Notes: generated from the letters alone by a model not told the origin. DNA of 52,877 nucleotides from a virus (IMGVR_UViG_3300031720_000004:1-52877), one strand, 5' to 3'. Positions 8,367-48,426 are shown, counted from the first letter of the stretch. Program-made: numbers and translations.

Positions 8367-9650
8367 CTACCAGGGGAGCCAGTTCCCGTCGATGACCGTC
8401 GCCTGGATCGTCTGCACAGGCGAGGCCGCGAGGTTGAGGTACGCCTCGAAGTCGAGCGTTGCGAGCACGACATCCTCCATCTTGATGTCGTCGGCGTACT
8501 TGCTCAGCGCGCACTTGTTGAGCGCGATTGTGACGCCGCCCGCGCCTGCGCCCGCGGGGTGCGCGAACGCCAGGGAGAGCGCGCCCGGCACTTCGGTTCC
8601 GGCCGACTGGTTGAACAGCCGGGTGAAGTAGCCGTAGGTGGCGTCGTTGAGAGACGAGAACACGAGGATGGACTGGCCCGTGATCTTGCGCGTCACAGGC
8701 GTGATGTACTGCGGGTTGTGCTGGCCGGACAGCGTGTACGTTTCCTTCAACCCGTTCTCGATGTCCAGGTTGATGGACGACATCTGCAGGATGGCCTGGC
8801 CGTACAGGTTGACCGTAGCCTCTGCGAACACGAACGGCGCTTCGTTGGTGACCGCGACCGCCGTGGGCGAACCCAGAACGGCCTGGCTCTGCGCCACCAC
8901 ATCGGCCGTGAAGTCCGCTTCGGTGTTGCCCGCGGCGATCTTCAGGGTGTACTTGGCGACGCGGCAGCCCGCGTACTGCTCGCTCTGGAACCCGCCGACC
9001 TGCTTCTCGATGGTCAGCGAGTCGAGAAGGTTCTGCTGCACAACGGTGTGCGTGTACGGCGCTACAACCGAAACCGCGGGCGTCGCCGCCACGTGGTTGT
9101 AGTTGATCGCCACATCGAAGGTCAACGTGTAGGGGCCAGCGCCCGTGACGTTGGTGAGCTTGCGCACTTCCGACACCTTGCCGGAAGCGTTGCTGTCGAT
9201 CTGGAAGAAGTCGCCGATGGCGGGAGCCGAGCCACCCGACAGCGTGTATGTGGCCCCGGTCGCGCCCGCCGTGAGCGCACCGAGTGTGCCGGACTTGCCG
9301 CCGCCCGCCGTGCCTGTAACGCCGACTCCGGTGCCGGAGCTGGTGACGTTGGCGCGCCCGCCATCCGCGCCGATGGCCGCAACCAGCATCGGGATGCCGT
9401 TGGTCGGGAAGAGCGGGCCTTCCACGTTGCCCGCGAACTTGTACTCCCCGTACACCGGGAAGATGTTCAGGTCGCGCTGCCCCATCATGACGGGCGGGAA
9501 GAACAGCCCGTTCTCCGGGTTGATGGTGCAGTTCTTCATCGGCTCAAAGTTGGTAGGCGTGAGCGGGGTCGCGAAGGAGGCTTCCTTCGCAATGCCTACC
9601 GCGCTGAGTGAGCCGTACTGCTCGACTGTGGTTACTGCTGGTCCTGGGAT
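8367..9650 (-). CDS. Major tail tube protein, probable ATC start
   Basis: SLTIEK...YAGCRVAK tube-like motifs. The tube-like N-terminus GSLSAVGIAKEASFATPLTPT lies upstream of the first ATG (9539) and is reached from AAGGAGG-ttca-ATC at 9650. Confidence 0.85.
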   Translation of the reverse strand: MPGPAVTTVEQYGSLSAVGIAKEASFATPLTPTNFEPMKNCTINPENGLFFPPVMMGQRDLNIFPVYGEYKFAGNVEGPLFPTNGIPMLVAAIGADGGRANVTSSGTGVGVTGTAGGGKSGTLGALTAGATGATYTLSGGSAPAIGDFFQIDSNASGKVSEVRKLTNVTGAGPYTLTFDVAINYNHVAATPAVSVVAPYTHTVVQQNLLDSLTIEKQVGGFQSEQYAGCRVAKYTLKIAAGNTEADFTADVVAQSQAVLGSPTAVAVTNEAPFVFAEATVNLYGQAILQMSSINLDIENGLKETYTLSGQHNPQYITPVTRKITGQSILVFSSLNDATYGYFTRLFNQSAGTEVPGALSLAFAHPAGAGAGGVTIALNKCALSKYADDIKMEDVVLATLDFEAYLNLAASPVQTIQATVIDGNWLPW

Positions 9651-9910
9651 TGAACCTCCTTCGTCACTTCAGGCTTGGCGATTGCCTCCTTCTTCTTGCC
9701 CTTGACGGGCTGCTCCACGTCCTCGGCGACGGCGACCGCCACCGGCTCCGTTACTTCGACTGGCTGATCCGCAGTGACCCAGAAGCCGCTCTCGAGCATC
9801 GCAGCGCCTTCCTCGTCGGTCACGTCGCGCTCGTCGCCCGGTTGAACTGGACCGCTGACGGGGCCGGTGACGAACGTGACGTCGTACGGCCAGATGAACT
9901 TGACCCTCAT
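9632..9910 (-). CDS. Small neck-region hypothetical protein
   Basis: MRVKFIWPY...VQPGDERDVTDEEG; ATGA-coupled start at 9910. Confidence 0.65.
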   Translation of the reverse strand: MRVKFIWPYDVTFVTGPVSGPVQPGDERDVTDEEGAAMLESGFWVTADQPVEVTEPVAVAVAEDVEQPVKGKKKEAIAKPEVTKEVQSQDQQ

Positions 9911-10380
9911 AGACGTGTAAGCAAACCTCCTAATTTGGCAGTGGACAACAGCTCTGACAACGCAGCCTTCGTCATCCGCTGCGTCAGGTCTTCGCGGACT
10001 TCCTCGCGCACCTTGTCCCAGCCGCGCTGTGGGTAAGGGTTCGGCTGCGTCGGGCCGACTTGCATCGCGAACACGTCCTGGCCGTTCTCGTCGACCCAGT
10101 GCAACACCTTGGCTTTCTTGGGGACGATGATGCCGTGGCCGTCTCGGATGATGAGCGCGTACGACACACCCGCCGTGATCGTGATGGTGGTGGAACCCAA
10201 GCGCCCCGTGGCCTTGGCCTTCAGGCTGCTCTTGAGAGTCTTGCTCCCGTCCGGGCTGCCGAACATCTCCAGCTGGCGTGTCTTGCCTACCGGAGCCTCG
10301 TCCTGAACAGCCTTGAGCACCTTGTCCTTGTTCGCAACGGCCCACTCAACAGTAGCCCGCTGGATCGCCATGAAGCTCAT
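9907..10380 (-). CDS. HK97 gp10-like neck / tail-completion protein
   Basis: EAPVGKT...LKSSL...YALII.DG...IVPKKAKVLHW...GPTQPNPY motifs; ATGA-coupled start at 10380. Confidence 0.75.
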   Translation of the reverse strand: MSFMAIQRATVEWAVANKDKVLKAVQDEAPVGKTRQLEMFGSPDGSKTLKSSLKAKATGRLGSTTITITAGVSYALIIRDGHGIIVPKKAKVLHWVDENGQDVFAMQVGPTQPNPYPQRGWDKVREEVREDLTQRMTKAALSELLSTAKLGGLLTRL

Positions 10381-10883
10381 GCCTGGTAGTCCTCGGTCAT
10401 GTCCACGATGAGGTGGGCGGTGTACAACAGTTGGCCCTGATCTGCGATCGGCTCTGGGTCGGCGGAGTCCATCTCGATGTTCTCGCCAATCATGATCAGC
10501 TGCGTGACCTGCGGCTGGCTGTCCAAGTCGGTGATGGTCATCGGATAGCCGATGTCCTCGATGCCCCAGCGGAGCGAGTCCTTGATCATGTTCCAAGTGG
10601 TGTCGCTCGGCTGCGGCGTGTCGATGAAGAACAGGAACACGTTGACCTTCCAAGGAGCGCGCTTGAAGCCGCCCGTGTGTCCGGCTGAGCGCGGCGCTGT
10701 GGTGCGGTGGATCGCGGCCTTGGCATCCCAGATGAACGCCTGCGGGCCTTCCATCGCTTCCAACACAGCGTTGGGTGGCGCGATAAAGCAAGCGAACGGC
10801 GCGATGTTGAGCGCCTCCATCGGCGGCGTGATCCAGCCGTCGAGCTTGGTCTTGAGCACGGCCATCACTGCGTTGGCGCTCAA
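10377..10883 (-). CDS. Probable tail terminator / head-tail connector
   Basis: TTGA-coupled start at 10883; size and position in the neck module. Confidence 0.55.
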   Translation of the reverse strand: MSANAVMAVLKTKLDGWITPPMEALNIAPFACFIAPPNAVLEAMEGPQAFIWDAKAAIHRTTAPRSAGHTGGFKRAPWKVNVFLFFIDTPQPSDTTWNMIKDSLRWGIEDIGYPMTITDLDSQPQVTQLIMIGENIEMDSADPEPIADQGQLLYTAHLIVDMTEDYQA

Positions 10884-11092
10884 GCTGTTGCCTCTACAGC
10901 CCTCGGGAATGCCTGACCGCGGCGCAGTCCGTACTTCTTGCGCAGGCACTTGTCGCAGACCCACTTGTGTAGGTCGTCTGACCAGGAGATGTGCTCGCCG
11001 CAGTAGCGGTGGCCACAGCCAGCTTCGCAGTCCTGTACGGTTACGGCTTTCATGCGGGTGCAGAGCGGGCAAGCCTTGCGTGGCCTTCCTAC
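10880..11092 (-). CDS. Small Cys/His zinc-finger protein, probable GTA start (not in the ORF track)
   Basis: AGGAGG-gttca-GTA then (M)GRPRKACPLC...CEAGCGHRYCGEH...VCDKC...ATA*. It fills the gap between its neighbours and its stop overlaps the next start. Confidence 0.7.
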   Translation of the reverse strand, partial: VGRPRKACPLCTRMKAVTVQDCEAGCGHRYCGEHISWSDDLHKWVCDKCLRKKYGLRRGQAFPRAVEATA

Positions 11093-11102
11093 TGAACCCT
11101 CC

Positions 11103-12032
11103 TCACACGACCACCAGACCGTACTTCTTCACGATGTCCTCGGCCATCCGCTCCAGTTCCTGCACCGACTTGCTGGCGGTGATGGGTGCCCCGCGCGCCT
11201 GGGGCGCGATGGTCGTGGCCCCGCGGATGCGCGCGTAGGCGGCGGCGAGGTAGAACCCGGCCTGCTGCAAGTTCGCGTCCTGCTGGGCCACGCGAGTGCC
11301 CAGTGCGTGGGCTTCCTGGAGGTTGGACTGAAGGTGGAGGACTCCGGGGCCGTTCACTGCGCCGCTTGTATCGGGGACGGCGCTGGTGACCAGGATGCCC
11401 TCCGTGCTCGCTCCGTCGTAGATGCGCCCGGCTGCCGGGCTGACCACGTTCCAACCGCAGATGTCGTCCACATGGATGGTGCTGTCGTTGATCGCTGCGG
11501 CACTGAGCAGCCCGCAGTTGATCATGTGACCGGCAATGTACTGCACCTGCAGACGGATGCCGTTGCGCCCGGACGACCAGTCGATGATGCCCGGCGCGAT
11601 GTTGATGTACTGCGCGCCGCGGGCCGCGCCGGGGAACGCGCTGTACAGCGGGCCTCCGATGATCTCGTCTATCTGGAAGCTCGACACCGGGATGGACGTC
11701 CAAGCTGGCGGGTAGGTGGACGACGGCGACCACTGGCCTGAGATCACCTGCAACACCGGCCACTGCTGGCAGCGGAGTCGGCCTTCAAACGTGCTCCTGT
11801 CCATCACCAGCGCGTAGTCCGGCCCGCGTTCCTGCTGTAGGAACACGGTGGTACGCAACACCTGCTCGGCCAGCTCATCCATGCGCTCGGTCACGCGCCA
11901 GCACAACTGCACCTGTTCGGCGTTGGGCGAAGTGCTGCCACGCGATGGCATGCTGTTCCAGTCGATGCCCAGCGGCGCGTTGATCAGCTCAACCGGCGTG
12001 ATGTACGGAGTCCGGTTTGCTATCTGCGGCAA
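11103..12032 (-). CDS. Head-to-tail adaptor
   Basis: 309 aa with YITPVEL N-terminus and VQYIAG...LQQA motif; TTG start after TAAGGAGG; position after the capsid gene. Confidence 0.7.
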   Translation of the reverse strand: MPQIANRTPYITPVELINAPLGIDWNSMPSRGSTSPNAEQVQLCWRVTERMDELAEQVLRTTVFLQQERGPDYALVMDRSTFEGRLRCQQWPVLQVISGQWSPSSTYPPAWTSIPVSSFQIDEIIGGPLYSAFPGAARGAQYINIAPGIIDWSSGRNGIRLQVQYIAGHMINCGLLSAAAINDSTIHVDDICGWNVVSPAAGRIYDGASTEGILVTSAVPDTSGAVNGPGVLHLQSNLQEAHALGTRVAQQDANLQQAGFYLAAAYARIRGATTIAPQARGAPITASKSVQELERMAEDIVKKYGLVVV

Positions 12033-12041
12033 GGAGCCTCC

Positions 12042-12416
12042 TTACCGGGTGCCTACGTTGATGGCCCGGCGACGCTTCCCGCGCTGGAACTCCTGGAACT
12101 CCTGGAAGTCCTGCACGTTGCCGCGCAAGAACTGCTCCTCCGCGTCCTCCTTGGCGCGCCGCTCGGCGTCGCTGAGAGGCACGAGGCTGGCGTTCGGTGC
12201 CCAGTGCGTGGTGAAGCTGGTGCCGTCCAGGGACTTGGTCATGATGCCGGGGTCCATCTCGATCAGCTTGGCGCAGCACGACTCGCACTCCAGGATGAAG
12301 TGGCCGGGCGTCCCGTCCTCTTTGTTCATCTTCTTGGTGCGCACGTGCCGGTGGCTGGTGCCGTCCGGCTGCGGAACGGTGATGTCGTCGATGTCGGTTC
12401 GTCCGTAGAGCTTCAA
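12042..12416 (-). CDS. Hypothetical protein
   Basis: TTGA-coupled start at 12416 with AAGGAG; contains CxxCC. Confidence 0.6.
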   Translation of the reverse strand: MKLYGRTDIDDITVPQPDGTSHRHVRTKKMNKEDGTPGHFILECESCCAKLIEMDPGIMTKSLDGTSFTTHWAPNASLVPLSDAERRAKEDAEEQFLRGNVQDFQEFQEFQRGKRRRAINVGTR

Positions 12417-12706
12417 ACGCTTGTCTCCTTCGTCACCGCGATGTGGCACCGCGGGCATTCGGTCTCCCAGTCCCACAACGTACGCATGCACGTGGGACAG
12501 ACACGGTCATCCTTGCTTCCCAGCCCGAGGACCGTTCCCGACACCGCCGCCACCACGTCGTAGTGACGCAGAGCGCCATTCTTCTTGAAGTCCCGCGCCA
12601 CGTTGTCCGGCAGCGTCACGCGCCCGCGCCTGTCCGCGCGGAAGGACGCGCCGCTGTGGTGATCGATGCCGGTTGCGCCGCGGGGTAGCTGGAATGTTTC
12701 GCTCAT
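12413..12706 (-). CDS. Zinc-ribbon hypothetical protein
   Basis: 97 aa, CPTC...CPRC; coupled at both ends. Confidence 0.7.
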   Translation of the reverse strand: MSETFQLPRGATGIDHHSGASFRADRRGRVTLPDNVARDFKKNGALRHYDVVAAVSGTVLGLGSKDDRVCPTCMRTLWDWETECPRCHIAVTKETSV

Positions 12707-12906
12707 GCGGTGTTGCTGAGGATCTCCTTGATCTTGTCGATGGGAATCTTGTGGCCGTGGTTCGCGCCGCGCTGCGCAGCGACAGCGTTCTTCTGGTTGG
12801 TCGACGCGCTGATCTGGGCCAGGTAGCCGTCCTCCTGGTACTCAGTCGGGACGCCGCCGTAGCGCGCCATCCAGTCCGTGTCGTGGTAGCCGCCTGGTAG
12901 TGCTAT
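12703..12906 (-). CDS. Small hypothetical protein, probable ATA start (not in the ORF track)
   Basis: AGGAGG-tgcctca-ATA then (M)ALPGGYHDTDWMARYGG...KIKEILSNTA*; the stop overlaps the next ATG. Confidence 0.7.
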   Translation of the reverse strand: MALPGGYHDTDWMARYGGVPTEYQEDGYLAQISASTNQKNAVAAQRGANHGHKIPIDKIKEILSNTA

Positions 12907-12929
12907 TGAGGCACCTCCTGGTTAAGAGT

Positions 12930-12954
12930 GGGAGGCCGGACGGCCCGACCTCCC
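12930..12954 (-). terminator. GC-rich hairpin after the major capsid gene (weak terminator or mRNA stabiliser)
   Basis: GGGAGGUCGGG-CCG-UCCGGCCUCCC followed only by a poor U-tract (ACUCUU). Confidence 0.45.
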
Positions 12955-12968
12955 CTTTGGGTCGACGG

Positions 12969-14846
12969 TTACGAGAAGGTCGTGCCGGAACCGACCGACT
13001 TCTGCAGCCCCTGAACGAGCGCGCTGTACTGCGGCGCGATGCCGACCAGCGTCCCGTAGAGGAACAGCGAGAAGCGGAAGGTCACGTCGATGACCGGCCA
13101 CGCGATGGACACGTAGTCCTGCACGTTGACCACTTCCCACGCGTTGTTGACGTTGTTGAAGCTGGTGGGGAGCTTGAACGTGAGCAGCATCGCGGAACCC
13201 TGCTTCCACCACGGGTGGGTCATGATCCGGATGAGCTTGCGCGTGAACGGGTTCTGGAACTGGCTGATCGCGGCCCCGGCCTTGATGTCTCCGATCTCGT
13301 CCTGAGCGATGAACAGCTGGTACGCACCCGTCTGGCCGTTCTTGCTCATGATGTCGTTCGTGAGGTTGATCTGGTCGTACGCCTCGGTGATCAGCAGCTC
13401 GGGGTCGGCGCGGAAGCCGCCGTTGCCGCTGTTGTTCGGAGCCGTGTTGTCCCACAGCCCGAGCAGAGCGTTGAAGATGGCCGCGGTGTTGAGCACCGTG
13501 CCCACCCTCTGGTTGAAGTAGCCGCCCGCGTAGCCCGAGGTCGGGTACACGTTGGGGCCACCCGCGTTTCCGGCCCATCCGGAGAGGATCGAGAACAGAC
13601 CCTCGTACCGGGTCGTCGCGCCGGTTCCGCTGTCGGCCGCTGGCGGGTTCGTGCCCGAGGTCGGGAGCGCGCCCTGGAGCGTGACCTTCTGACCGCCGAG
13701 GTCCGTCACGTTGAGCCAGAAGCCCGCGCGACCGGGGTTCGCCGCGCCCGTCGCGGTGTACACGTTGTACGAGAGCGCGCCCAGCGCCGGGTTGACCGTC
13801 ACGTCGATCACCTGGCCGTTGGACGCCGCCTGGGTCGCCACCGTGCCTGCGCCATACAGCGTCTCGCCGAAGTAGTTCTTCGCCGTGACGATGATGTACA
13901 CGTTGGTTGTGATGCCGGACAGTCCGGTCTCACCTGTGCCCGCCGAGCGGGCGGCGGTCGTGGGGGTCGTCGGCGGCGTGAGCACGGTGTTCGTGCCCGC
14001 GAGGAGCATGTACTCCTCCGCCAACATGGCCTTCTGCATGAGGATCAGGTTGGCGAGGCCAGCCACGTCCTCAAAGCCCTGGCCTGCCCACTGCGACAGC
14101 CAGGAGACCTGCTCCGACCGACCGAAGAACTTGTACGGGATCGACACGTCCGTGCCAGCCGGGGTGTCACCCGCGGGCAGCTGGACGGGCCAGTTCGTGA
14201 ACGAGCCACCACCGGGGAACTCCGCGATGTCCCAGGGGATGGGGTTCCCGGCCGAGCCGCCCGTCTGCGAACCGGCGATGCCCGTGATGACCTTGACCTT
14301 GCGGGCAGTGCCCTGGCCCTGAGTCCTCGGGAGCATTCCGCGCAGCGGAGCGTAGACCGGGTAGATGAGGCGGGTCGGCGCGACGAGGTCGAAGGGGACC
14401 AGACCGCTGGCGAGCGGGGACGTCAGCGTGACGTCCTTGCCCAACGCGGCGCTGATCTGCGTGGAGAGCTGCTGGACGAGGCTGTTGATCCCCATCTGCA
14501 TGGGGTTGCTGTCCAGGAAACCCTTGAGCTGCGGCATGAAGTCCTGAGCGAACCCAGCCGCCACCTTCTTCGGGTTGGCGATGCCCTCCTTCGTCTGCCG
14601 CATGACGGACTTGGCGACGAACACGCTGCGGTCGTCGATCTCCATGCCGTCCTCGTACGGCTCCACGCGTCCGCGCTTGCGCGCGTAGCCCCAGCCCTTG
14701 ACGAGATCGGGCATGCGGGCTGCCAGCTCGCGCTCGCTGTCGTAGCCGTTGGCACCGGCTGCGGCCAGCTCACCGAGATGGATCGGGTCGAGCGTTGCGG
14801 CTCCGCGGGCGGCTTCGCCCGTGTCCGCTGAAAACGTTCGCGCTAT
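12969..14846 (-). CDS. Major capsid protein, probable ATA start
   Basis: Follows the protease/scaffold gene; GLVPFDL...PVYAPLRGMLPR and EEYMLLAG motifs plus a central beta-rich insertion. AGGAGG-tcatca-ATA at 14846 is in frame, 44 codons above the ATG at 14714. Confidence 0.85.
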   Translation of the reverse strand: MARTFSADTGEAARGAATLDPIHLGELAAAGANGYDSERELAARMPDLVKGWGYARKRGRVEPYEDGMEIDDRSVFVAKSVMRQTKEGIANPKKVAAGFAQDFMPQLKGFLDSNPMQMGINSLVQQLSTQISAALGKDVTLTSPLASGLVPFDLVAPTRLIYPVYAPLRGMLPRTQGQGTARKVKVITGIAGSQTGGSAGNPIPWDIAEFPGGGSFTNWPVQLPAGDTPAGTDVSIPYKFFGRSEQVSWLSQWAGQGFEDVAGLANLILMQKAMLAEEYMLLAGTNTVLTPPTTPTTAARSAGTGETGLSGITTNVYIIVTAKNYFGETLYGAGTVATQAASNGQVIDVTVNPALGALSYNVYTATGAANPGRAGFWLNVTDLGGQKVTLQGALPTSGTNPPAADSGTGATTRYEGLFSILSGWAGNAGGPNVYPTSGYAGGYFNQRVGTVLNTAAIFNALLGLWDNTAPNNSGNGGFRADPELLITEAYDQINLTNDIMSKNGQTGAYQLFIAQDEIGDIKAGAAISQFQNPFTRKLIRIMTHPWWKQGSAMLLTFKLPTSFNNVNNAWEVVNVQDYVSIAWPVIDVTFRFSLFLYGTLVGIAPQYSALVQGLQKSVGSGTTFS

Positions 14847-14882
14847 TGATGACCTCCTATGGGGATTGTGTTGCGGGGACTG

Positions 14883-17156
14883 CTACTTCGTGATGTCGGC
14901 GGACGCTGACTTCTCGACCTTCTCGATGTTCATCAGCTCCTGCTGCGCGCGGTCGCGGGCCGAAACGTCCGTGGCGTAGATCGCCTGGTGCTCCAGCCGT
15001 GCGCGCTTCTCGATCCGCTCTGCGTTGGCAGCCTCTTCCTTGCGCTTCTGCACCTCGGGAGAGACGCCCTTGCCCAACGCTTCGCGGCGGACGGGACCAC
15101 GTGTGGGGTCGGTCTGCTTGGCCATCTTCTTGACGCTGCGCTTCAGCCCCTTGAGCTTCTTCTGCAGCTTGGCCTTCTTGGACTTCTTCTTCTTCGCCTT
15201 GGGAGGCTTGACGGGCGGGACGGAACCCTCCGGCAAGTCGGCGTCGGCCGCGCCCGCGGCCTGTCCGTGCTCCTCCTGGTCGGTGCCGATCGGCTCCTTC
15301 TGGCCCTTGATGACCTTGAGCTTCGCGACGCCGTTGGTCGGCTGCTTCGTCGCCTTGCGCAGCTTCTTCAGCTGGGTCCGCGCCTTCTTCGCGCGCTTCG
15401 CCTGCTTCTTGACGCGCTTCTTGAGCTTGGCGGTCTTGCTCTTCTTCTTCTTCGGGGTCGGGATGTCCATGTCGCCGGGCTGTGCGATTGCGGTCTTCAT
15501 GCCTTTCACCTTCTTGACCTTCTTGACCTTCGCTTTGCCCGACTTCGGTGCCGCGCCCGGTGTCGGCGGCTCGAGGCAGCAGTTGATATCCGGGAACGCC
15601 ACCATCAGCGCGTTGTGCAGCTGATCGACCAGAGCCATCGAAGCGCGCTTGGTGTCGCCCGGCGACTGGCGCTGGTGTGCTCCGTCAACGCTGCCGTGAG
15701 ACTTCGGTGCTCCGCCTGAGCCTGCGTTGGCGGGCTTGGCCGCTGCCGCGCTGGCTCCCTCGCCCGTCATGCGCGCGCGCCCTGCGGACAAGTAGCCGCG
15801 CCGGAACTTGCCCGGCGAGACGTTGCCGCTGGCGCTCTCCGCTGACGGCACACCCGGCGTGTCCGTCAGGATGCCCGAGCCAACCGGCCCGGTCGTGGGG
15901 CTGGCGTCGCTGCCGATGGTTCCCGCCGCGTCCGCGAACGAGTGGTTCGGCGTGAGCTGCGTCGGGATCGGGTTCCCGTGGTTGGAGATGATCTCCTTGT
16001 TGGCGTCGACGAACAGCTTGTTCAGCTCGGCGCGGGCATCGAACATGCTCTCCGCCATCGCCTGCGCGTTCTCGAACATCTCGCTCTGCAGGAAGCCCAC
16101 CAAGTGCTGGTAGGCCTCGCCCAGCGCCGAGAGGTTGTGTGCGCTCTTGCCGCTGCCGTTGTCCTCGACGATCTCGTTCTGGAGCAGCTGCCACAGCGCC
16201 AGCTTGGCGTTGGGACCGATCGCCATTGCGATGCCGTCCTTCTCCAGAGTCGGGTACGCGGCCTTCACCGCGTCGTTGCTGTACGCCTGGCACGTCAGGT
16301 CGTGCAGCCGCTGCATCGCGTAGTCGATGTCCTGTCGCTTCTGTAGGGTGATTGAAACCTCCTTCCAATCTTCTGGGATAAGATCCTGACGGCCGATCCG
16401 CAGGGCTTCACGCTTGATGAAGTTCGAGAACGAGAGCGAGTCCGGCCTGTCGGGGCTGTAGGCTTTGATGGCCTTCTTCAGCTCCTTGGGCTTGTCCAGC
16501 GGCTCGTAGGACTTCATCACACCCGTGCCGCCGCACTTGTTGCACTTCGCGCCGTCGACCATCTTGCTGCCCTTGCAGGCGCTGCAGACGGCGTCCTTGC
16601 CGACCATGCCGGTCATCCCACGCGCATCGTCGTCATCAGAGTCGCCGCCCTTCACCATCTTCATCAGGATCTGCATCTCGCCTCCGATGGCCTTCTCCGT
16701 GATGGCGAACTTGCACTTCGGGTTGGCGGGGTAGTCGACCAGCGACACCTCCACGACCTGGCCTCCGACGATGCGCCCGTTCTTGGCCTTGGCATCGCGG
16801 ATGATCCGCGGCTGTGCGATGCCAACGCTGTACGCCTTGAAGCCGCCCTTCTTGACCTGGAGCATGGCACCCGGCTCGTAAACCTCGCTCTTGAGCCAGA
16901 AGCCATCGGGCTTCTCATCCAGTCCGACGCCGATGCCCGCGGGCGGGAGCTGACCGCTGTGCATCTGGCGGATGTTGTAGAAGTCCGTGAACCAGTCGCC
17001 CAAAGCCTTCCGCGCGAAGTCCTTGTCAACGATCTGGTCGTCGAGGTCCAGGTCGTCCGTGGTGGCCTTGCCGTACACGAACAGCGAGCTGCCGTCCGCA
17101 GACTTCTCGTACTTGAAGACTGGGACTGTGATGTAGACCATGTCCTGCTGGGCCGT
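14883..17156 (-). CDS. HK97-type prohead protease fused to a Zn finger and a long scaffold-like region, probable ACG start
   Basis: VYGKATTDDLDLDDQIV...NIRQMH...KAYSVG...EVSLVDYPANPKC protease motifs; CSACKG...CNKCGGTG; AGGAGG-taagttca-ACG at 17156. Confidence 0.85.
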   Translation of the reverse strand, partial: TAQQDMVYITVPVFKYEKSADGSSLFVYGKATTDDLDLDDQIVDKDFARKALGDWFTDFYNIRQMHSGQLPPAGIGVGLDEKPDGFWLKSEVYEPGAMLQVKKGGFKAYSVGIAQPRIIRDAKAKNGRIVGGQVVEVSLVDYPANPKCKFAITEKAIGGEMQILMKMVKGGDSDDDDARGMTGMVGKDAVCSACKGSKMVDGAKCNKCGGTGVMKSYEPLDKPKELKKAIKAYSPDRPDSLSFSNFIKREALRIGRQDLIPEDWKEVSITLQKRQDIDYAMQRLHDLTCQAYSNDAVKAAYPTLEKDGIAMAIGPNAKLALWQLLQNEIVEDNGSGKSAHNLSALGEAYQHLVGFLQSEMFENAQAMAESMFDARAELNKLFVDANKEIISNHGNPIPTQLTPNHSFADAAGTIGSDASPTTGPVGSGILTDTPGVPSAESASGNVSPGKFRRGYLSAGRARMTGEGASAAAAKPANAGSGGAPKSHGSVDGAHQRQSPGDTKRASMALVDQLHNALMVAFPDINCCLEPPTPGAAPKSGKAKVKKVKKVKGMKTAIAQPGDMDIPTPKKKKSKTAKLKKRVKKQAKRAKKARTQLKKLRKATKQPTNGVAKLKVIKGQKEPIGTDQEEHGQAAGAADADLPEGSVPPVKPPKAKKKKSKKAKLQKKLKGLKRSVKKMAKQTDPTRGPVRREALGKGVSPEVQKRKEEAANAERIEKRARLEHQAIYATDVSARDRAQQELMNIEKVEKSASADITK

Positions 17157-17161
17157 TGAAC

Positions 17162-17566
17162 TTACCTCCTGGCGCCCAATCCGGGCAGATGAATGCGGCT
17201 GCTGGTGGTGAGCGCGGCTTCCCGCGCCAGACGCCCTTGTTCGTTGACGATGCGCTCCACCACGTCCATCCGCGGCGTGAGCGAGGAGACGACCTTGACG
17301 ATGCGAATACGAACCCGGTTGGCCTGCTCGTCGTTGCCTTTCAGCGACGCTCGCGGTGCGTGCTTCTGGTAGTGCATCCGCTTCCTGAACAACCGAACCA
17401 GCTCAGCACGGTGCGGCGCGCATTCCCGCGTAGCCCAGCAGTCCCAGCACAGGTTGTCCTTGTACTCGGTCGCGGAGACGTGCTTGCTGCAGGACCGGCA
17501 GGGCAGTTGAATACCTTCGATCCGTAGGCCGGAACCGGCGCGCTCGGGGAGTAAGATGCGGCTCAC
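17162..17566 (-). CDS. Hypothetical CxxC-CxxC protein
   Basis: GTG at 17566 after AAGGAAGG; CRSC...CWDC. Confidence 0.6.
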   Translation of the reverse strand: MSRILLPERAGSGLRIEGIQLPCRSCSKHVSATEYKDNLCWDCWATRECAPHRAELVRLFRKRMHYQKHAPRASLKGNDEQANRVRIRIVKVVSSLTPRMDVVERIVNEQGRLAREAALTTSSRIHLPGLGARR

Positions 17567-17597
17567 TCGGCGTATCCTTCCTTGATGTGAGGGTTCA

Positions 17598-17780
17598 GTA
17601 GCAGAGAACGAACTAACGGTGACGCAGCGTACGGGCGCGAAGCCCGAACAGATCGAGATTGAGGATGTCGGTGGCGGGGTGACTTCCGACGACAAGGAAG
17701 CCGCGCGCCGCGGGCTTACCCAACCGCCGTCGCGCTCGGATTCTTCATCAACTCCGCCTGAACCGAAGGAATCCGATTAA
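17598..17780 (+). CDS. Small acidic protein on the opposite strand, probable GTA start; candidate immunity partner
   Basis: GAGGG-ttca-GTA then (M)AENELTVTQRTGAKPEQIEIEDVGGGVTSDDKEAARRG...KESD*. Purine-rich, coding-like codons on + in a region otherwise coded on the minus strand. Confidence 0.55.
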   Translation, partial: VAENELTVTQRTGAKPEQIEIEDVGGGVTSDDKEAARRGLTQPPSRSDSSSTPPEPKESD

Positions 17781-26284: not shown

Positions 26285-27136
26285 TTACCCTCCGGAGTTG
26301 ATGGTGAGCGTGTACGTGAACTGGATCGAGTCGCCGTTGTTCACGTTGATGGCGGCGAAGACCTTGTGGTCCCAGAGCACAGGCTTGAGCGTGAACGCTT
26401 CTGTGGCACCTGGCGTGGAACCGGCTGTGCCGTCCGCCACCTTGTACCAGGCCGGAATCGTCAGGACGCTGCTGGTGTTGCTGAGGATGAGGCCCCAGAC
26501 CGTGGTTGTGCCGGGAAGGACGATCAGCTGCTGCTCGCCCTGCACTGTGGAGGACGAGGCCGAGTAGGGTGTGCCTGTAACCGTGCCTGATGTCGCGCCC
26601 GTGGCCGTGAACGGTGTGCCCGTCGTGGCCGAGAGCACCTGGGCGCTGTGCAGGCCCCACTCTGTGATCGCCAGCGTGGAGCCGTAGTTGATCGTCGTGA
26701 CCTGCTGGAACTTCTGCAGGTTCGCCGCCGACACCAGCGACTGAACGCCGGACACCGCGTTGGCGGTCGTGGGCGCGGCCAGTGTCTGGAGCGCAACATC
26801 GGTGGCGGCTGCCGCGGTGGCACCTGTGCCTGTCGCGACCCAGTTCTGCAGCTTCAGCGTGGTGGCGGCAGCGCCAGAAGGAGAAGCCCACTGCGGGTCG
26901 TTCGCCATCGCCAGGACGCCGACGTTGGTGACCAGACCAGATCCGAGGTCGTAGATCTTGCTCTTGCCATCCGCCCGTATGTGCTTGGCGTACAGGTGGC
27001 TCTGGAAGAACATGTGCGCCGGGCGCAGAGAGTCGCCGCGGTCGCGCGTTGCCATGAGACGACCGAACGGCGTCCGCAGCACCTCGTGGATGCGATGCGG
27101 GATGGCTATCCGAGCGCGAGCTTCCTCAGTGGTTAT
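26285..27136 (-). CDS. Virion structural protein, probable ATA start
   Basis: GLVTNVG...ATGTGATAAAATDVALQT...ITEWGL...INVNNGDSIQFTYTLT; AGGAGG-ttca-ATA at 27136, in frame with the GTG at 27082. Confidence 0.7.
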   Translation of the reverse strand: MTTEEARARIAIPHRIHEVLRTPFGRLMATRDRGDSLRPAHMFFQSHLYAKHIRADGKSKIYDLGSGLVTNVGVLAMANDPQWASPSGAAATTLKLQNWVATGTGATAAAATDVALQTLAAPTTANAVSGVQSLVSAANLQKFQQVTTINYGSTLAITEWGLHSAQVLSATTGTPFTATGATSGTVTGTPYSASSSTVQGEQQLIVLPGTTTVWGLILSNTSSVLTIPAWYKVADGTAGSTPGATEAFTLKPVLWDHKVFAAINVNNGDSIQFTYTLTINSGG

Positions 27137-27144
27137 TGAACCTC

Positions 27145-28608
27145 CTATGCTGCTTCAAAGTCGGCCGCGGGATTGGCCACGCTGCTGTCATCAGCGGGGA
27201 CGTATTCGTACTCCAACACGCAACGGCAGTTCATCGCGCCCTCGCAGATCTCGCCGAACCCGCCGTCCCCAGGCAGTGGCGCTTCCTCCGCGGGCCACAT
27301 CTGCCCGTTCTTCTCTTCGCACAACGCACAGGGGTCTTCGCTCGTGACGACCCACGTGGCCATGATGCCACCGGATTCCGGGTCTGCGTCGGGCGGCAGC
27401 AGCGCGCTTATCGCGCCGTCCTGATAGCCCTCCTCGTAGGCCGGGATCGTGGTGGATGCGTACTGGTCCAGCCGGGAGGCAAGCTCCGCGCCCGCCAGCC
27501 CGGCAACCAAGTCCTGGACCATGCCCTGCAGGAATCCGTGCTGCTGCTCGACATCGCGGTTGATATCGTCCTGCACGTCGGGGTCCAGATCATCGAAGGA
27601 CAGCTCGTCAGGGTCGCCCTGCTTGACGACCGCCTTGATCTGCTTGCCCTGCTTGTGGCCCGCAACGTAGGCCGCGGCGTAGGCGTCACGCAGCGCTCGG
27701 CTGGCCTCGTCCACGAAGGACAGGTGGGAGTCGTGAGCATCGCGCGCCAGCGCGCCGAGACGCGAGGCTGTGCGTGCCATGATCCCTCGGAGCGCCTCCT
27801 CGCGCTGCGTGGCGCGTCGCGAGCTGCGGGCCGGGATGACAAACTTGCCCATCATGCGGCCCTTGGCGGCAGCAACCGCGGATGCCGGAGAAGAGTGGGG
27901 CAACTCTCGCGTGATCAGGACGTACTCTTTCTCCGGGAGCCACGAGATGGCGAACTTGGCGATGTCCTTGCCGTGACGCAAGTAGCGGCCCAGCTTCTCC
28001 AGCTCGGCGTACACATGCTTGTTCGCGGCGAAGCTGCGCAGCAGGTTCCAGTCCATGTCGGTCTGGAGTTCCTCGCGCAACGCGGGCATCCCCGGCAGAT
28101 CACCGGGCTTGAACCACGCTACAGCTTCGAATCTATCACCATCCGGATTCTCGCTGTTGTCACGATTGGCCAAGTCCACCATGCTCTCGCTGCGGATCAG
28201 CCAGACGTAGCCGCGGTACACGCCGTCCGTGCTGTCCCACTGGCCAGCGATGACGCCCGCGGGTAGCGCGAGTCCGACCTCTTCCTGCCACTCGCGCATG
28301 GCGCAGGAGAAGGCGTTCTCACCTGGCTCGCAATGCCCGCCCGGAAACTCCCACTGCCCCGGCGCTGGATCGTCCTCAACATCCGCGCGCTGAAGCAAGA
28401 GAGTGCGGCCCGTGTCCTGCGCCACCACCGCCAGTCCGCTGGCGATGAGAGTGCTGGGCGGGCGCATCGGCGGCATCGTGCGCCACTGTCCGGCCAAGTC
28501 GTACGGCACCAGCTGCATCCCGCCTCCGCCTATGGAGAAGTCCTTGAGCAGGTCGGCGGCGGCTTCGGCTACTTCGGCTGCGGCGTCGAGGATGTCCTCA
28601 ACTTCCAT
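27145..28608 (-). CDS. Nudix hydrolase fused to a MuF-like head morphogenesis protein
   Basis: Nudix box GGHCEPGENAFSCAMREWQEEVGL; C-terminal W...CALC...NCRC MuF-like Cys motif; directly after the portal gene. Start ATG 28608 inferred. Confidence 0.8.
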   Translation of the reverse strand: MEVEDILDAAAEVAEAAADLLKDFSIGGGGMQLVPYDLAGQWRTMPPMRPPSTLIASGLAVVAQDTGRTLLLQRADVEDDPAPGQWEFPGGHCEPGENAFSCAMREWQEEVGLALPAGVIAGQWDSTDGVYRGYVWLIRSESMVDLANRDNSENPDGDRFEAVAWFKPGDLPGMPALREELQTDMDWNLLRSFAANKHVYAELEKLGRYLRHGKDIAKFAISWLPEKEYVLITRELPHSSPASAVAAAKGRMMGKFVIPARSSRRATQREEALRGIMARTASRLGALARDAHDSHLSFVDEASRALRDAYAAAYVAGHKQGKQIKAVVKQGDPDELSFDDLDPDVQDDINRDVEQQHGFLQGMVQDLVAGLAGAELASRLDQYASTTIPAYEEGYQDGAISALLPPDADPESGGIMATWVVTSEDPCALCEEKNGQMWPAEEAPLPGDGGFGEICEGAMNCRCVLEYEYVPADDSSVANPAADFEAA

Positions 28609-34441: not shown

Positions 34442-34937
34442 GCTGTACTGAGACTTCCTTCTTCGTGATCTCGACCCGGCTGGTCGTGCCGCCTGTGATC
34501 TCCAGACCAGTGCGCTCGCGATACAGCTTGGGCCGGTATGCCTTGAGCAACGCCATCAGCGCTGTCTCGGAGTGGATTTCTTCGAACGCCACCAGCTTGC
34601 CTGCTGACACCAGCGGGCGCTTGTACTGTCCCGTGGCCAGCTTGTGCAGTTCACGTTCCAGAGCATCCACGATCTCTTCCTGCGCGTTCTGCAGCTCGTC
34701 CTTGAACTCCGGATCGGTGGCCGTCCACTTGTAGACGGTTCGTCGGTCAATCCCGATCCGCTTGGCTGCGAAGGCAACCACCTTCAGCTTTCGAAACTGG
34801 AACAGGAAGCGGGCTTTACGCGCGCTTACGCGAGCCTCGGCGAGCCTCTTTTCGGCCGCAACCTCAGCACTGTCCGCTTGCTGCTGAGCCTCTTCAGGCT
34901 CCGTCGTCGTCTGCTTCTGCTTTCTTGGCTTCTTCAC
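34290..34937 (-). CDS. terS: Terminase small subunit
   Basis: HTH AAKRIGIDRRTVYKWTATDPEF, then SETALMALLKAYRPKLYRER; upstream of and overlapping TerL. GTG start at 34937 inferred. Confidence 0.8.
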   Translation of the reverse strand: MKKPRKQKQTTTEPEEAQQQADSAEVAAEKRLAEARVSARKARFLFQFRKLKVVAFAAKRIGIDRRTVYKWTATDPEFKDELQNAQEEIVDALERELHKLATGQYKRPLVSAGKLVAFEEIHSETALMALLKAYRPKLYRERTGLEITGGTTSRVEITKKEVSVQLVADVTKLLVESGLGSNDPASLADAARRSAEPVDSALAVAKASRLSLPPA

Positions 34938-37990: not shown

Positions 37991-38175
37991 TTCAGGTGCG
38001 CCTTGCTGCGCGCCGACATGCGCTCCGCCTCCTGTACGCTGACGGCGAAGACCTCAACGCACACGGCACAGAACGTACACGCACACTCGTGACACTGAAT
38101 GTGCTGGTGGTCTTGCGTCATGTCCAGCTCGAGAGTGTACCCACAACCGTGCGGGCACTGCACCGGAACCTTCAT
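37987..38175 (-). CDS. Small zinc-finger protein
   Basis: CPHGC...CHECACTFCAVC. Confidence 0.6.
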   Translation of the reverse strand: MKVPVQCPHGCGYTLELDMTQDHQHIQCHECACTFCAVCVEVFAVSVQEAERMSARSKAHLN

Positions 38176-40435: not shown

Positions 40436-41275
40436 TTAGTTCCCGTCGACGAACGACGGCTCCAGCGGCAGCGACTCGCTGAGAATCCGCAGGAGGTCGG
40501 CGCTGGTCTCCACCTGGCGCTTCAGGGGCGTGTCTCGCATGACGCGCGTGAAGGCGTTGTGGAGGCTCCAGCGGCTCGGCTCGGCGACGTCCGGGGTAGC
40601 GTGAGCGAAGTACGTCTCGACGACGTCGATGAACTTGCTGGTCGCCACCGGCTGGTACGGCAGCCGCATGACCTGGACGATCAGCCCGCCCGCCTGCTCA
40701 TCCGTGAGCTCGGCGTTCTGCAGCTGGCCGATGCGCGACGTGAACGGAACGAAGTTGTCGAAAGCCTTCTCCAGAAGGTGGTCGATGCGCGTCTCCCACG
40801 GCTCGTCGCCCGTGTGCTTGCGCTTGCCGTTGCCGCCCGCGATGGTGCCGATGGCCAAGTTGGTGCAGACGTACACCTTGATCGCGGCCTCGATCCGCAG
40901 CGCGCGGCTCTTGTCGTTGGCGTGGGTCATTACGAGCATGGCTCCGGCCGTCTCCTGAAGCTCCTTCGGCACGAAGACGTGGTTGCCCATCGCCTCGCGC
41001 AGCTGAAGCATCCGCTCCTTGCCCAGTTCCTGCTGGTCGGGCGAGAAGTCGTACGTGGCGTCCAGACGCTGGCCCTCCTGGCTCAGGATGTACCGGGGCA
41101 CGAACCCCTCCATCCCGCGCTCCTTGAGCTGGCTCTCGAGCGCCTCCGCCACCGCCCAGTGCGGGACGGGCTTGTGGCGCGGCCCCAGCACCTGCGGCTC
41201 GGGCAACAGCTTGAGGTTGTCCAACGTGGTGGCTCCCTCAAGCACCGGCTTCGACAGAACGGCTGACTTGGTCAT
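40436..41275 (-). CDS. DUF932-like protein
   Basis: HKPVPH...HANDKS...VYVCTNL...RKHTG...SRWSLHNAFT; start at ATG 41275 after GGGAGGT and a -10-like box. Confidence 0.7.
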   Translation of the reverse strand: MTKSAVLSKPVLEGATTLDNLKLLPEPQVLGPRHKPVPHWAVAEALESQLKERGMEGFVPRYILSQEGQRLDATYDFSPDQQELGKERMLQLREAMGNHVFVPKELQETAGAMLVMTHANDKSRALRIEAAIKVYVCTNLAIGTIAGGNGKRKHTGDEPWETRIDHLLEKAFDNFVPFTSRIGQLQNAELTDEQAGGLIVQVMRLPYQPVATSKFIDVVETYFAHATPDVAEPSRWSLHNAFTRVMRDTPLKRQVETSADLLRILSESLPLEPSFVDGN

Positions 41276-45390: not shown

Positions 45391-45401
45391 CTTGCGGCGA
45401 C

Positions 45402-46365: not shown

Positions 46366-46366
46366 C

Positions 46367-46508: not shown

Positions 46509-46519
46509 GAGGACTCTGA

Positions 46520-47875
46520 TCACTCCGACCGACCTACCCGCCCGTCCGGCAGTTTGACCAGAATGCCCTTCTTGATCATGCGATGGATTGCCAAGTGCAG
46601 ACGGTCGCGCCCGCGCTTGTCCTTGTCGTCGATGCCCAGCAGGTCGCGCAACCGCTCCGGGGTGGCCGCGTTGTCTGGCGCCAGGAACAGTGCGTTGAGG
46701 ATGCGCTGGCCTGCGGTCATGCCCGCCGCCAACTCCGGAGCCTCAAGGATGTCCTCGCGCTCGTAGCGGATGCCGCCCTCCTCGCGGTAGCAAGCCAGAC
46801 CCATCGGCTTGAGTAGGCGCGCGTAGTTGCTCTTTATGTTCTTCAGCAGCAACTCCTGCCGGGCCTCCTCGTTCTCCTTCTCGCCCTCCAGGTGGAACAC
46901 CATGCGCGCCAGGTTCATCTTGTACACGGAACCGTAGGGCTTGGCCGCGGTGCCGCCCTGCCGCACATCGTCGCCAGTCTGGTGATCGATCACGATCCAC
47001 GCGCACTGACTCGTCTCGCGTATCGCGCCGAACGCGCGCATGGTACTCTCGGCCTTGTCGCCCTCCGCCGCGGAGTTGCCGAATGCCAGGCCCGCGCTGT
47101 CCACGATGACCAGTCCCACGGAAGCCTTGTCGATGGCGTCCGCGATGCTCTCCAGGTCGTCAGCCAGACGGCGCTTGCACTCGCGATACAGCACGTCCGG
47201 AGCCGGGAACCCGTAGCCCCTACCCAACGCCTTGAACGTGTCCTGCCAACGCCACAGGCTGGCCTCCCAGTCCAGAATGAGGACCGGCGCGCTGTTGGGC
47301 TTCCATCCGCGGAACAGTTCACGGCCCGTCTGGACACTGAACGCGATTGCTGCTGCCAGCGTTGACTTGCCCACGCCGCCTGCGCCGAACAGGATGGTCA
47401 CCAAGCCCTCCGGCAAGATCGGGTCCAGGATGTACTGAAGCGGCTTGCTGGTCTCGCCGTCGCCGTTGGTAGTCGTCACGGGCACACCCAACCGCTCCAG
47501 CCGCAACACCTCGCGGAAGAACAGGTCGATGTGCGCCCGCCAGTCCGTCTCCACCGTCAGGTCTATGCGCCGCTCGTTGAGTGACTTGGCCATGCGGTCG
47601 CGCGCTTGGGACGACATCAGGTTGATGCGGCCCCAGTCCAACACGCCGCCCGGCCCGGCTTTCTTGTACGCCAGCTGATACTCCGCCGTCACCTCGTCAC
47701 GGCTTTCGTGTAGACGGTTGAGCTTGATGATGACGTTGTTCGGGAACGTGCCGATGTACCCCAGCCCGACCTTCTCCACCTGCACGTCCTCAGGGATGGA
47801 GAGTCGGACAACGTTGTCGGCTGCGATACCCCTGTCGATCTTGTCCGTGAGGTTCTCGCGCGGTGCCGTAGCTAT
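46520..47875 (-). CDS. RepA-like SF4 helicase (AAA_25) with C-terminal winged helix, probable ATA start
   Basis: Walker A GAGGVGKS, LILDWE, Walker B LVIVDS, IVIDH, PYGS. AAGGAGG-cttca-ATA overlaps the upstream TAG (ATAG). Confidence 0.85.
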   Translation of the reverse strand: MATAPRENLTDKIDRGIAADNVVRLSIPEDVQVEKVGLGYIGTFPNNVIIKLNRLHESRDEVTAEYQLAYKKAGPGGVLDWGRINLMSSQARDRMAKSLNERRIDLTVETDWRAHIDLFFREVLRLERLGVPVTTTNGDGETSKPLQYILDPILPEGLVTILFGAGGVGKSTLAAAIAFSVQTGRELFRGWKPNSAPVLILDWEASLWRWQDTFKALGRGYGFPAPDVLYRECKRRLADDLESIADAIDKASVGLVIVDSAGLAFGNSAAEGDKAESTMRAFGAIRETSQCAWIVIDHQTGDDVRQGGTAAKPYGSVYKMNLARMVFHLEGEKENEEARQELLLKNIKSNYARLLKPMGLACYREEGGIRYEREDILEAPELAAGMTAGQRILNALFLAPDNAATPERLRDLLGIDDKDKRGRDRLHLAIHRMIKKGILVKLPDGRVGRSE

Positions 47876-48426
47876 TGAAGCCTCCTTCGTGTTTCCAGTT
47901 CTGCCAGCGTCGCCTCGATCCGCCCCGCTTTCCACTTGGTATCCGGCAACCCGCGCAGCGTCTTCAGGTCTTCACGCAATTGCTCTCGCGAGCGCTGCGC
48001 CAGCTTGCTGTGATCGCCGGGGTTGTTCTGTGGGTTCACGTCCAGCAGCGCCGCCTCGCGCGCGTTCGCGCCTCCCCACCAGCCGTACTTGTCCTCGCCC
48101 GCCGCGCCGGACTGCTTCATGTGCGCGTCCATCCAGATCATGGCAGCTGCCGCCCGCGGGCCGGTCTCTCCGAACACAGCCGTGAAGATGGCCGCGACGT
48201 CCTTGATCAGTGCCTTCATCTCCGCCTCCGGGTCGCGCTCTACGACAGGCGGCGTCCATCCTGCGAGGAGGTGATCGACGAAGGTCGGTGCGGGTTCATC
48301 CGCCTCGATCAGTTGCAGACAGTCTGCCCAGCTGATCTTGTGGGCCAGAGCGAGTTCGACTGCCACGCTCCGAACCGAGGTATACTGATCCCGCAAGTTT
48401 CGTTCGTCCTCAATGAACCGCCCCAC
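47872..48426 (-). CDS. Hypothetical protein upstream of the helicase
   Basis: 184-aa ORF; start uncertain. Confidence 0.6.
   Translation of the reverse strand: MGRFIEDERNLRDQYTSVRSVAVELALAHKISWADCLQLIEADEPAPTFVDHLLAGWTPPVVERDPEAEMKALIKDVAAIFTAVFGETGPRAAAAMIWMDAHMKQSGAAGEDKYGWWGGANAREAALLDVNPQNNPGDHSKLAQRSREQLREDLKTLRGLPDTKWKAGRIEATLAELETRRRLQ

Follow-up and report, generated by a model that had tools for sequence, protein, structure and literature searches.

Several genes of the viral record IMGVR_UViG_3300031720_000004, including those for the major capsid protein and the tail tube, appear to begin at codons other than ATG, GTG or TTG. The record, a linear IMG/VR virus entry that CheckV rates as 63% complete, was analysed over its whole length of 52,877 bases and is referred to below as the window. 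We think it probable that seven or eight window genes genuinely start at near-cognate codons, which would be read by the host initiator tRNA anchored by a Shine-Dalgarno (SD) sequence. The start set comprises four ATA, two ATC and one GTA codon and probably one ACG. It covers the genes for the capsid, the protease/scaffold protein with a nested scaffold start inside it, a small head protein, a zinc finger protein, the tail tube, a structural protein and a helicase-type ATPase. The positions of these starts, their conservation and their sequence context are plain observations. Six of the eight sites listed by a first-pass annotation of the window are firmly supported by sequence comparison (ATA 47875, 27136, 14846 and 12906, GTA 11092 and ATC 9650).

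Sequence context of the start sites

The first-pass annotation had described eight sites at which an SD sequence and the triplet UCA precede a near-cognate codon in frame with an open reading frame (ORF). All eight are as described, seven on the minus strand and one, at 17598, on the plus strand. Each minus-strand site has a full AGGAGG, then TCA directly before an in-frame ATA, ATC, GTA or ACG, and lies at the junction with the preceding gene; the spacing after GGAGG is 4-8 nucleotides (nt) at all eight. The accompanying claim that no ATG, GTG or TTG lies within usable reach holds where the next such codon is 12-44 codons downstream and SD-less (37 codons from 9650, 44 from 14846, 18 from 27136, 12 from 12906, 13 from 11092 and 30 from 47875, which also has an SD-less GTG 20 codons upstream), but fails at 17156, where an ATG follows within 5 codons.

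The enrichment check that had been proposed gave a clear result. GGAGG-N0-6-TCA has 26 matches in the window against 13.97 expected, a number reached in none of 100 shuffles, and GGAGG-N0-6-TCAATH has 6 against 0.23 expected, the largest shuffle giving 2. All six matches to the longer pattern fall on the coding strand and share the frame of long ORFs; the sixth, an internal ATC at 16352, was absent from the earlier list. Within 40 genes, ATA accounts for 22 of 13,332 in-frame codons (1.65 per 1000 codons, or 3.4% of Ile codons) and TCA for 42, while the dicodon TCA-ATA does not occur at all. The ATAs at the start sites are therefore not ordinary sense codons.

A table of 51 canonical and 8 non-canonical starts was curated by hand, with several of the canonical ones uncertain. 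TCA occupies positions -3 to -1 at 8/8 non-canonical and 3/51 canonical starts (Fisher 7e-8), and a full AGGAGG precedes 8/8 and 13/51, respectively (P = 9e-5); both P values overstate independence because the pattern partly served to find the non-canonical set. The term "genome-wide" that had been applied to the pattern is too strong for about 8 of about 59 starts. The UCA context is indeed fixed among the window's sites but is not obligatory: close relatives have UCC, and more distant lineages use UUU-CUG or CAU-AUA. Of the canonical starts that had been cited as sharing the UCA, 32506 is an ATG inside a short ORF (32647-32369) below the coding-score cutoff and makes a weak control.

RNA folding of 80-nt initiation regions was compared with that of shuffled sequences. 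At the eight non-canonical sites the z values were mostly positive, that is, folding was weaker than in the shuffles (+0.53, 0.15, 0.68, 1.17, 1.52, -0.05, 1.26 and 0.30), whereas eight of the 13 AGGAGG-led canonical starts, folded for comparison, gave values about zero or negative (0.12, 0.08, 0.33, 0.06, -0.60, -0.69, -0.11 and -0.41). No common RNA structure was found around the non-canonical sites; the regions are just generally weakly folded. A codon-usage score trained on long genes, which gives the position where coding begins, placed this onset ahead of the first canonical codon at 47875, 27136, 14846, 12906 and 9650.

Conservation of the start codons among relatives

The major capsid protein gene (12969..14859, minus strand) has the SD TAGGAGG, the spacer TCATCA and the start ATA at 14846-14844. 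Coding begins at ~14828 by the codon-usage score, and alignments with IMG/VR relatives start at residue 39-41, ahead of the first ATG, which is residue 45. The orthologous start codon is ATA in the window and in loci L104 and L105, GTG in L002, CTG in L003, L005, L008 and L009, and ATC in L010; A2 and D8 are invariant in an alignment of seven capsid sequences, and the first codons are therefore orthologous. In the closer relatives L104 and L105, which come from other JGI metagenomes, the starts read AAGGAGG-ATCA-ATA-GCA and AAGGAGG-TTCC-ATA-GCC, so that the ATA is constant amid changes in the spacer and in the third base of codon 2. Over the 45 codons up to the conserved Met, the window and L105 differ at 10, 9 and 23 first, second and third codon positions, with 15 synonymous and 14 non-synonymous codon changes. 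This third-position excess, together with the synonymous changes, indicates that the stretch is translated and under protein-level selection. In L071, L077, L081, L082 and L088-L090 of IMG/VR the capsid match spans 2.5-2.8 kb and not 1.8 kb, which suggests an insertion (an intron, intein or homing element) in the capsid gene.

The prohead protease-scaffold gene (14883..17170, minus strand) has the SD CAGGAGG (17171-17165), the spacer TAAGTTCA and the candidate start ACG at 17156-17154. Within the window this codon is ambiguous because protease homology begins at ATG 17141. In the orthologue of L104, AGGAGG-TTCA-ATA-GCA stands at the equivalent place with no ATG nearby; L002 has ATG there, the low-GC relatives have GGAGATTT-CTG, and L008 has TTG. 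From this comparison ACG 17156 is probably the start. A small Cys-rich (CxxC) zinc-finger-like gene lies just upstream (17162-17566, minus strand), its TAA overlapping the SD of the protease gene.

An internal in-frame initiation signal, AAGGAGG-TTTCA-ATC, is found at the protease/scaffold junction (16350..16364, minus strand; ATC at 16352-16350). L104 and L105 retain every base of it, its rare GTT and TCA/TCC codons included; in more distant relatives an internal scaffold start was looked for and not found. The signal suggests a candidate nested scaffold gene that would run to 14883. Phage lambda has such an arrangement, with the scaffold gene Nu3 nested within the protease gene C. The likeness lies in the internal in-frame start at the protease/scaffold junction; the putative start at 16352 differs in being an ATC that is kept only in the closest relatives. 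The protease-scaffold and capsid ORFs share a frame with one TAG between them (14883-14885, minus strand), as they do in L104 and unlike in L105 and L009. Read-through of this TAG, possibly by means of a tRNA-like element described below, was considered and rejected, as the frames differ in L105 and L009, and the shared frame is probably coincidental.

Two small genes show the same behaviour. The small head-module gene (67 amino acids; 12703..12920, minus strand) has the SD CAGGAGG, the spacer TGCCTCA and the start ATA at 12906-12904, and the orthologous codon, followed by Ala-Leu-Pro or Ala, is ATA in L104 and L114, ATC in L112 and ATG in L002. The small zinc-finger gene (70 amino acids, CxxC...CxxC; 10880..11104, minus strand) has the SD GAGGAGG, which overlaps the upstream TGA, the spacer GTTCA and the start GTA at 11092-11090. 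Its orthologue in L114 reads TAGGAGG-TTCC-ATC-GGG-AGA...CPLC where the window reads GTA-Gly-Arg...CPLC, and its GC content at third codon positions is 0.71, compared with 0.61 and 0.55 when the other frames are read. Starting at the first ATG would delete the first CxxC.

The tail tube gene (PF18906; 8367..9661, minus strand) has the SD AAGGAGG, the spacer TTCA and the start ATC at 9650-9648. The Pfam Phage_tube_2 profile aligns over its full length (1-266/266) from residue 13, the residue at which the phrog_290 alignment also begins, while the first ATG is residue 38, 25 residues later; the coding onset is at ~9626. In L009 the sequence GAGG-TTT-CTG is followed by a homologous N-terminus.

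For the remaining two genes the starts rest on N-terminal length and homology, whereas same-codon orthology covers the capsid, the small head gene, the zinc finger, the protease, the tube and the internal site. The AAA-ATPase/helicase-type gene (PF13481; 46520..47887, minus strand) has the SD AAGGAGG at 47887-47881, the spacer CTTCA and the start ATA at 47875-47873, which overlaps the TAG of the upstream gene (47874-47872); coding begins at ~47893. Its homologues P0002, P0003 and P0005, the nearest at 43-45% identity, begin with Met at the same alignment column, and the invariant P28 lies upstream of the first canonical GTG. A peptide-pattern search of IMG/VR returned no relatives of this gene. 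The structural-module gene (26285..27147, minus strand) has the SD TAGGAGG overlapping the upstream stop, the spacer TTCA and the start ATA at 27136-27134. Relatives in L098-L103 start with ATG or GTG, and their tblastn matches set in between query residues 5 and 23, around or before the first canonical GTG (residue 19); the coding onset is at ~27109.

The orthologues thus keep ATA or ATC, or put ATG, GTG or CTG on the same codon, as would be expected from real initiation at the near-cognate codons that the first-pass annotation had proposed. It had allowed that homologues might start at the downstream ATG or GTG with the extensions unconserved, and the opposite was observed: the extensions are conserved. 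That the gene-caller models are right, with the upstream stretches and their SDs serving as untranslated leaders, is a very unlikely reading. Public calls do use the downstream starts, protease homology begins at ATG 17141, and two window genes use ATGs 12-14 nt from the SD. However, protein-level conservation extends upstream of the canonical codons, the orthologues' canonical starts map onto the ATA and ATC codons, none of the downstream canonical codons has an SD, and the zinc finger would lose its first CxxC. Truncation by gene callers had been anticipated, and the public proteins bear it out, with the capsid at 581 amino acids, the tube at 390, the small protein at 55, the protease at 752 and the helicase at 419 (from GTG 47779); an ATG-initiated zinc finger is absent from the public protein collection. 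Public collections therefore lack 5-44 residues of the clade's capsid, tube, protease and further proteins, or miss the proteins altogether, and truncated entries affect structure prediction and family models.

The same comparisons bear on whether the codons are artefacts or are corrected in the mRNA. Assembly or base-modification errors might turn ATG into ATA, or the mRNA might be edited, A-to-I at AUA or GUA and C-to-U at ACG. A-to-I at the third position would make ATA and GTA resemble AUG and GUG, and ACG-to-AUG editing occurs in plastids. We find either explanation hardly credible: these codons are found again in L104, L105, L112, L114, L035 and L037, which were assembled independently from other metagenomes, the changes are of several kinds (ATA, ATC, ACG, GTA and CTG), known deaminations cannot repair ATC or CTG, and the Pfam search of 27 window proteins contains no deaminase. 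A source-like contig with no differences from the window over 8300-17300 is a possible source of the record and hence not independent. A sediment metagenome run from another study (X3) holds a diverged relative in which about 1 letter in 10 differs over the aligned pieces; among the differences listed are the in-frame loss of 3 nt at 17151 and the gain of 3 nt at 17171.

To survey the clade, 81 capsid loci were screened with a simple SD heuristic; 8 had no N-terminus, 1 ran off the contig end and 2 had no SD. The remaining 70, which are not independent counts because several are the same or near-identical contigs, gave ATG, GTG or TTG in 39 cases, CTG in 11 (among them L041, which an ATG shortly before the CTG makes probably canonical), ATC in 1, ATA in 1 (L037) and other codons in 18. 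These 18 are taken as failures of the heuristic, although L035, which is one of them, reads AAGGAG-TGGCAT-ATA on inspection. In alignment, the ATA of L037 falls on the GTG start of a prophage from Arthrobacter. In G404, a complete 88-kb record with terminal repeats and 45% GC that contains L009, an a-priori screen gave 6 hits. The 4 convincing ones are all in structural genes, namely those for the capsid, the tail tube, the protease/scaffold and a head protein of 1500 codons; all four carry SD-TTT-CTG and reach their first canonical codon only 19-114 codons further on. In 58 kb of G406 (69% GC) the capsid has CAT-ATA, and one further ORF may use CAT-CTG. As judged from these sequences, the trait is recurrent in the clade and centred on the capsid and other abundant virion proteins; the codon and the -3 to -1 triplet differ by lineage, and close relatives such as L002 are fully canonical.

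Mechanism and alternatives

The arrangement of the sites allows us to propose how they would be used. The perfect AGGAGG 4-8 nt upstream would anchor the 30S subunit, and the codon would be set in the P site by weak folding, an Ala or Thr second codon and a short pyrimidine-rich spacer that ends in TCA, or in TCC among relatives. There the host initiator tRNA, presumably carrying formylmethionine, would pair with one mismatch, or two for GTA, with the strong SD and the open structure compensating for the weak codon. Output would then depend on how strictly initiation factor 3 (IF3) acts against near-cognate codons, which would make the genes tunable in infection: because IF3 inhibits non-canonical starts, virion-gene output would rise if IF3 became limiting or were inhibited.

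Several points weigh against this proposal. The most abundant virion proteins carry the weakest codons, which a simple model does not explain. A model in which any weak codon will do fails to predict the preference for ATA over the GC-favoured ATC, and a fixed -3 to -1 triplet, TCA or TCC, within a lineage lies outside known rules. GTA differs from AUG at two positions. At the protease, ATG 17141 offers an alternative start 5 codons past ACG 17156 and 23 nt from the SD. The hand curation of the canonical-start table is a weakness, and the evidence for the starts comes from sequence comparison. Hecht and colleagues reportedly found in 2017 that such codons reach ~1% or less of AUG efficiency in E. 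coli, which fits poorly with their use on the most abundant virion proteins. E. coli IF3 discriminates against them and elevated IF3 inhibits non-canonical starts (PMC2268962).

Some of these difficulties would be met by a dedicated switch, in which start selection is relaxed in the infected cell or the host lineage and virion genes are switched on translationally, a reading that we consider unlikely. IF3 could be lowered or inactivated, C34 of the initiator tRNA could be modified to read AUA, or a phage RNA-binding activator could recognise UUC(A/C)AU. A 5-formylcytidine (f5C) modification lets mitochondrial tRNA read AUA. Codon choice is indeed non-neutral, with ATA dominating the starts while making up 3.4% of Ile codons, and each lineage has a fixed context (TCA/TCC-ATH here, TTT-CTG in the low-GC relatives and CAT-ATA or CAT-CTG in G406). 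The four convincing cases of G404 are all large or abundant structural genes, and several small zinc-finger genes are present. The codon type also flips among near relatives (canonical in L002, ATA in L104 and L105), suggesting dependence on a host or phage factor. On the other hand, there is no candidate for such a factor: the Pfam search of 27 window proteins contains no translation-related family, and the zinc finger has no Pfam family. Canonical and non-canonical starts are mixed in the late operon, the helicase-type gene also has ATA, and the portal, the tape measure and many other late genes use ATG, GTG or TTG, which argues against a strict late-gene switch. A single modified tRNA, moreover, cannot cover ATA, ATC, ACG and GTA together.

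In its fullest form this alternative holds that the clade, one of uncultured phages, evolved a dedicated signal for its most abundant virion proteins, made up of the perfect SD, a lineage-specific triplet and a near-cognate codon, which is efficient only under relaxed proofreading; we would give that modest odds at best. On this reading the near-cognate codon would be AUA or AUC in soil lineages and CUG in freshwater lineages, and relaxation would come from IF3 loss or inhibition or from an altered anticodon loop of the initiator tRNA. If this were true, the identity of the start codon would switch translation from early to late genes, doing at initiation what the recoding of stop codons does at termination.

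The searches for recoding factors were largely negative. ARAGORN found no tRNA in the window. A tRNA-like element at 36169-36065 (minus strand), inside the 3' end of ORF 36647-36033, matches the whole Rfam tRNA model (1-71) at 39.8 bits. Its variable region holds a hairpin insert of 36 nt, its anticodon loop is CCGCUAG (C33; nominal anticodon GCU), and the alignment shows the pairs G1-C72 and A31-U39. Judged by known initiator features it is not initiator-like, nor is it a standard suppressor. When it was compared with 401 Actinomycetota genomes, 37 gave matches that reflect generic tRNA similarity only: the longer ones are ~80% identical, and the few that reach up to 96% are no more than 25-27 nt long. 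The GCUA of the element could pair with UAGC at some sites, but this was rejected, as it would put the ribosome out of frame. G404, which is complete and CTG-using, has no tRNA gene; G405 has a tRNA-Asp found by ARAGORN and a second, weaker Rfam tRNA hit that ARAGORN missed. A phage-encoded initiator tRNA with an altered anticodon was discarded on these grounds, the window element not being initiator-like and G404 being without a tRNA. Such a tRNA is not required, since G404 carries SD-TTT-CTG on four structural genes and does without one. Suppressor-tRNA recoding was set aside with the window ORFs intact under table 11 and no tRNA found by ARAGORN, and leaderless initiation with AGGAGG upstream of every site in a tightly packed operon. 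No translation factor, tRNA-modifying enzyme or deaminase was found by Pfam among 27 window proteins of this 63% complete record, and PHROGs assigned no translation-related function to the 7 proteins searched.

The position of the sites at gene junctions also raises termination-reinitiation, in which ribosomes leaving the upstream cistron would restart at the nearest SD-positioned codon under laxer discrimination. The upstream stop overlaps the start at 47875, lies 6-11 nt before it at 17156, 27136 and 11092 and 37-63 nt before it at 14846 and 12906, and comes 16 nt after it at 9650. According to one paper, 70S ribosomes that stay on the mRNA past a stop initiate there at non-canonical codons, but accurate re-initiation uses 30S-IF3 complexes (PMC2268962). 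We nevertheless consider this explanation improbable. Coupling cannot provide enough capsid and tube protein, since both are needed in much larger numbers than the products encoded upstream; the perfect SD at every site points to de novo 30S binding; and the internal ATC 16352 has no upstream stop.

SD-anchored reading of these codons by the host initiator tRNA has partial precedents. The E. coli infC gene starts with AUU and is autoregulated through IF3. The window resembles it in having AUH codons read by an initiator tRNA, with output that would be sensitive to the IF3 level, but infC is a single-gene feedback loop with AUU and not AUA, and no programme of phage structural genes. Some phages recode stop codons in late genes. 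Common to both is a non-standard decoding signal that is concentrated in virion genes, breaks gene calling and could separate early from late expression; in the window no reassignment is needed and the signal acts at initiation, so that the analogy is functional only. AUA and AUC are start codons in mitochondria, and Esposito is said to have dealt in 2003 with organelle non-AUG starts with extended pairing. Non-AUG starts with extended codon-anticodon pairing occur in plastids and mitochondria (PMC9845219). Conserved non-AUG starts there serve real, even abundant proteins and flanking bases modulate their use, as appears to be the case in the window, but organelles have altered tRNAs or factors. 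The base at -1 in the window is A and not the U predicted for pairing with A37, while the UUU-CUG of the low-GC relatives fits.

The nearest parallel in setting is sigR of Streptomyces, which has a GTC start behind AGGAGGTG and is repressed by IF3 (PMC5472188). Its authors proposed that the extensive SD stabilises the mispaired complex, and gene callers misannotate sigR (PMC5472188). The likeness comprises the actinobacterial setting, an unusually extensive SD, a codon kept among relatives and misannotation. The differences are that sigR is one low-level regulatory gene, against 7-8 phage genes that include the most abundant virion proteins, and that the window has mostly ATA or ATC with a fixed -3 to -1 triplet; IF3 dependence belongs to sigR and would have to carry over to the phage. 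The near-cognate starts described earlier are thus isolated regulatory devices, as in infC and sigR, or sporadic annotations of single phage genes. In openly searchable full-text literature we found single-gene cases only (sigR GTC and isolated phage CTG starts), and no phage clade with systematic near-cognate starts on capsid, scaffold or tube genes in a conserved context. It is unexpected that the most abundant virion proteins carry codons that bacterial ribosomes reject and that relatives, too, keep ATA against strong GC pressure. This raises the question of how far a perfect SD and its context can prevail over IF3 proofreading, or whether proofreading is relaxed in some actinobacteria or phages. 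Together with its lineage variants, the short signal of AGGAGG, TTCA and ATA offers ready reporter elements for initiation fidelity in Actinomycetota.

Host, gene layout and further candidates

The window has ~64% GC and carries nearly all its genes on the minus strand. The replication/recombination genes (52-36 kb) come first, and after them the terminase, the portal, a NUDIX-MuF-type head protein, the head genes and, extending as far as position 3, the tail genes. Among sequencing runs, the best match to its sequence is a soil metagenome run, and none of the matching runs listed is from RNA. A single-sequence capsid search of genome contigs gave no match, and a profile search was needed to find 7 prophage-like loci with capsid relatives, 6 in Actinomycetota (Actinoallomurus, Arthrobacter, Streptomyces, Amycolatopsis and two metagenome-assembled genomes (MAGs)) and 1 in an Armatimonadetes-binned MAG contig. 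Because the capsid relatives sit as prophages mostly in Actinomycetota, the host is probably an actinobacterium. A nucleotide search of a phage collection found no match, and a protein search of it found only distant Firmicutes phages at ~25% identity.

The plus-strand gene proposed at 17598 did not hold up. The ORF behind GAGGG-TTCA-GTA (17589..17780, plus strand) has GC fractions of 0.67/0.52/0.62 by codon position, which show no coding bias, and no homologue evidence, and is not supported as a gene. A 13-mer common to 17598 and 11092 is within chance by a rough estimate. TTA 9920 was also rejected as a further NTA start; its frame begins at ATG 9910, overlapping the upstream TGA.

A tail chaperone-like gene (7857..8346, minus strand) has the SD TAGGAGG followed by GTA 8333 at a spacing of 6 or ATG 8327 at a spacing of 12. 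So long a spacing is possible for the ATG, since in a neighbouring gene the start ATG 9910 stands 14 nt from the SD. ORF 7999-7742, whose first start codon comes only at 7816, overlaps the end of gene 8327-7857 (7742-8366, minus strand), and the position of the two ahead of the tape-measure gene (7749-5470) is the usual layout of a frameshifted tail-assembly chaperone pair.

Besides the gene at 17162-17566, small Cys-rich (CxxC) zinc-finger-like genes are scattered over the genome at 37994-38175 and 10880-11092 (minus strand), none of them with a Pfam family. The small terminase ORF (34991-34290, minus strand) overlaps the large terminase ORF by up to ~150 nt (34290-34555), and the sole early canonical start of the large terminase is an SD-less TTG at 34441. 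At 41275 (minus strand) a strong GGGAGG and ATG lie in frame within ORF 41572-40436 (DUF932), adjoining an out-of-frame TAA; this signal may mark a second product or a mis-joined gene pair. In ORF 38053-37457 (minus strand) the coding score is good from ~37990, while the first ATG, GTG or TTG comes only at 37888. Exactly at the coding onset a CTG overlaps the upstream TGA as CTGA (region 37994-38053), and it is a possible further non-canonical start, coupled to the upstream gene and lacking both SD and TCA.

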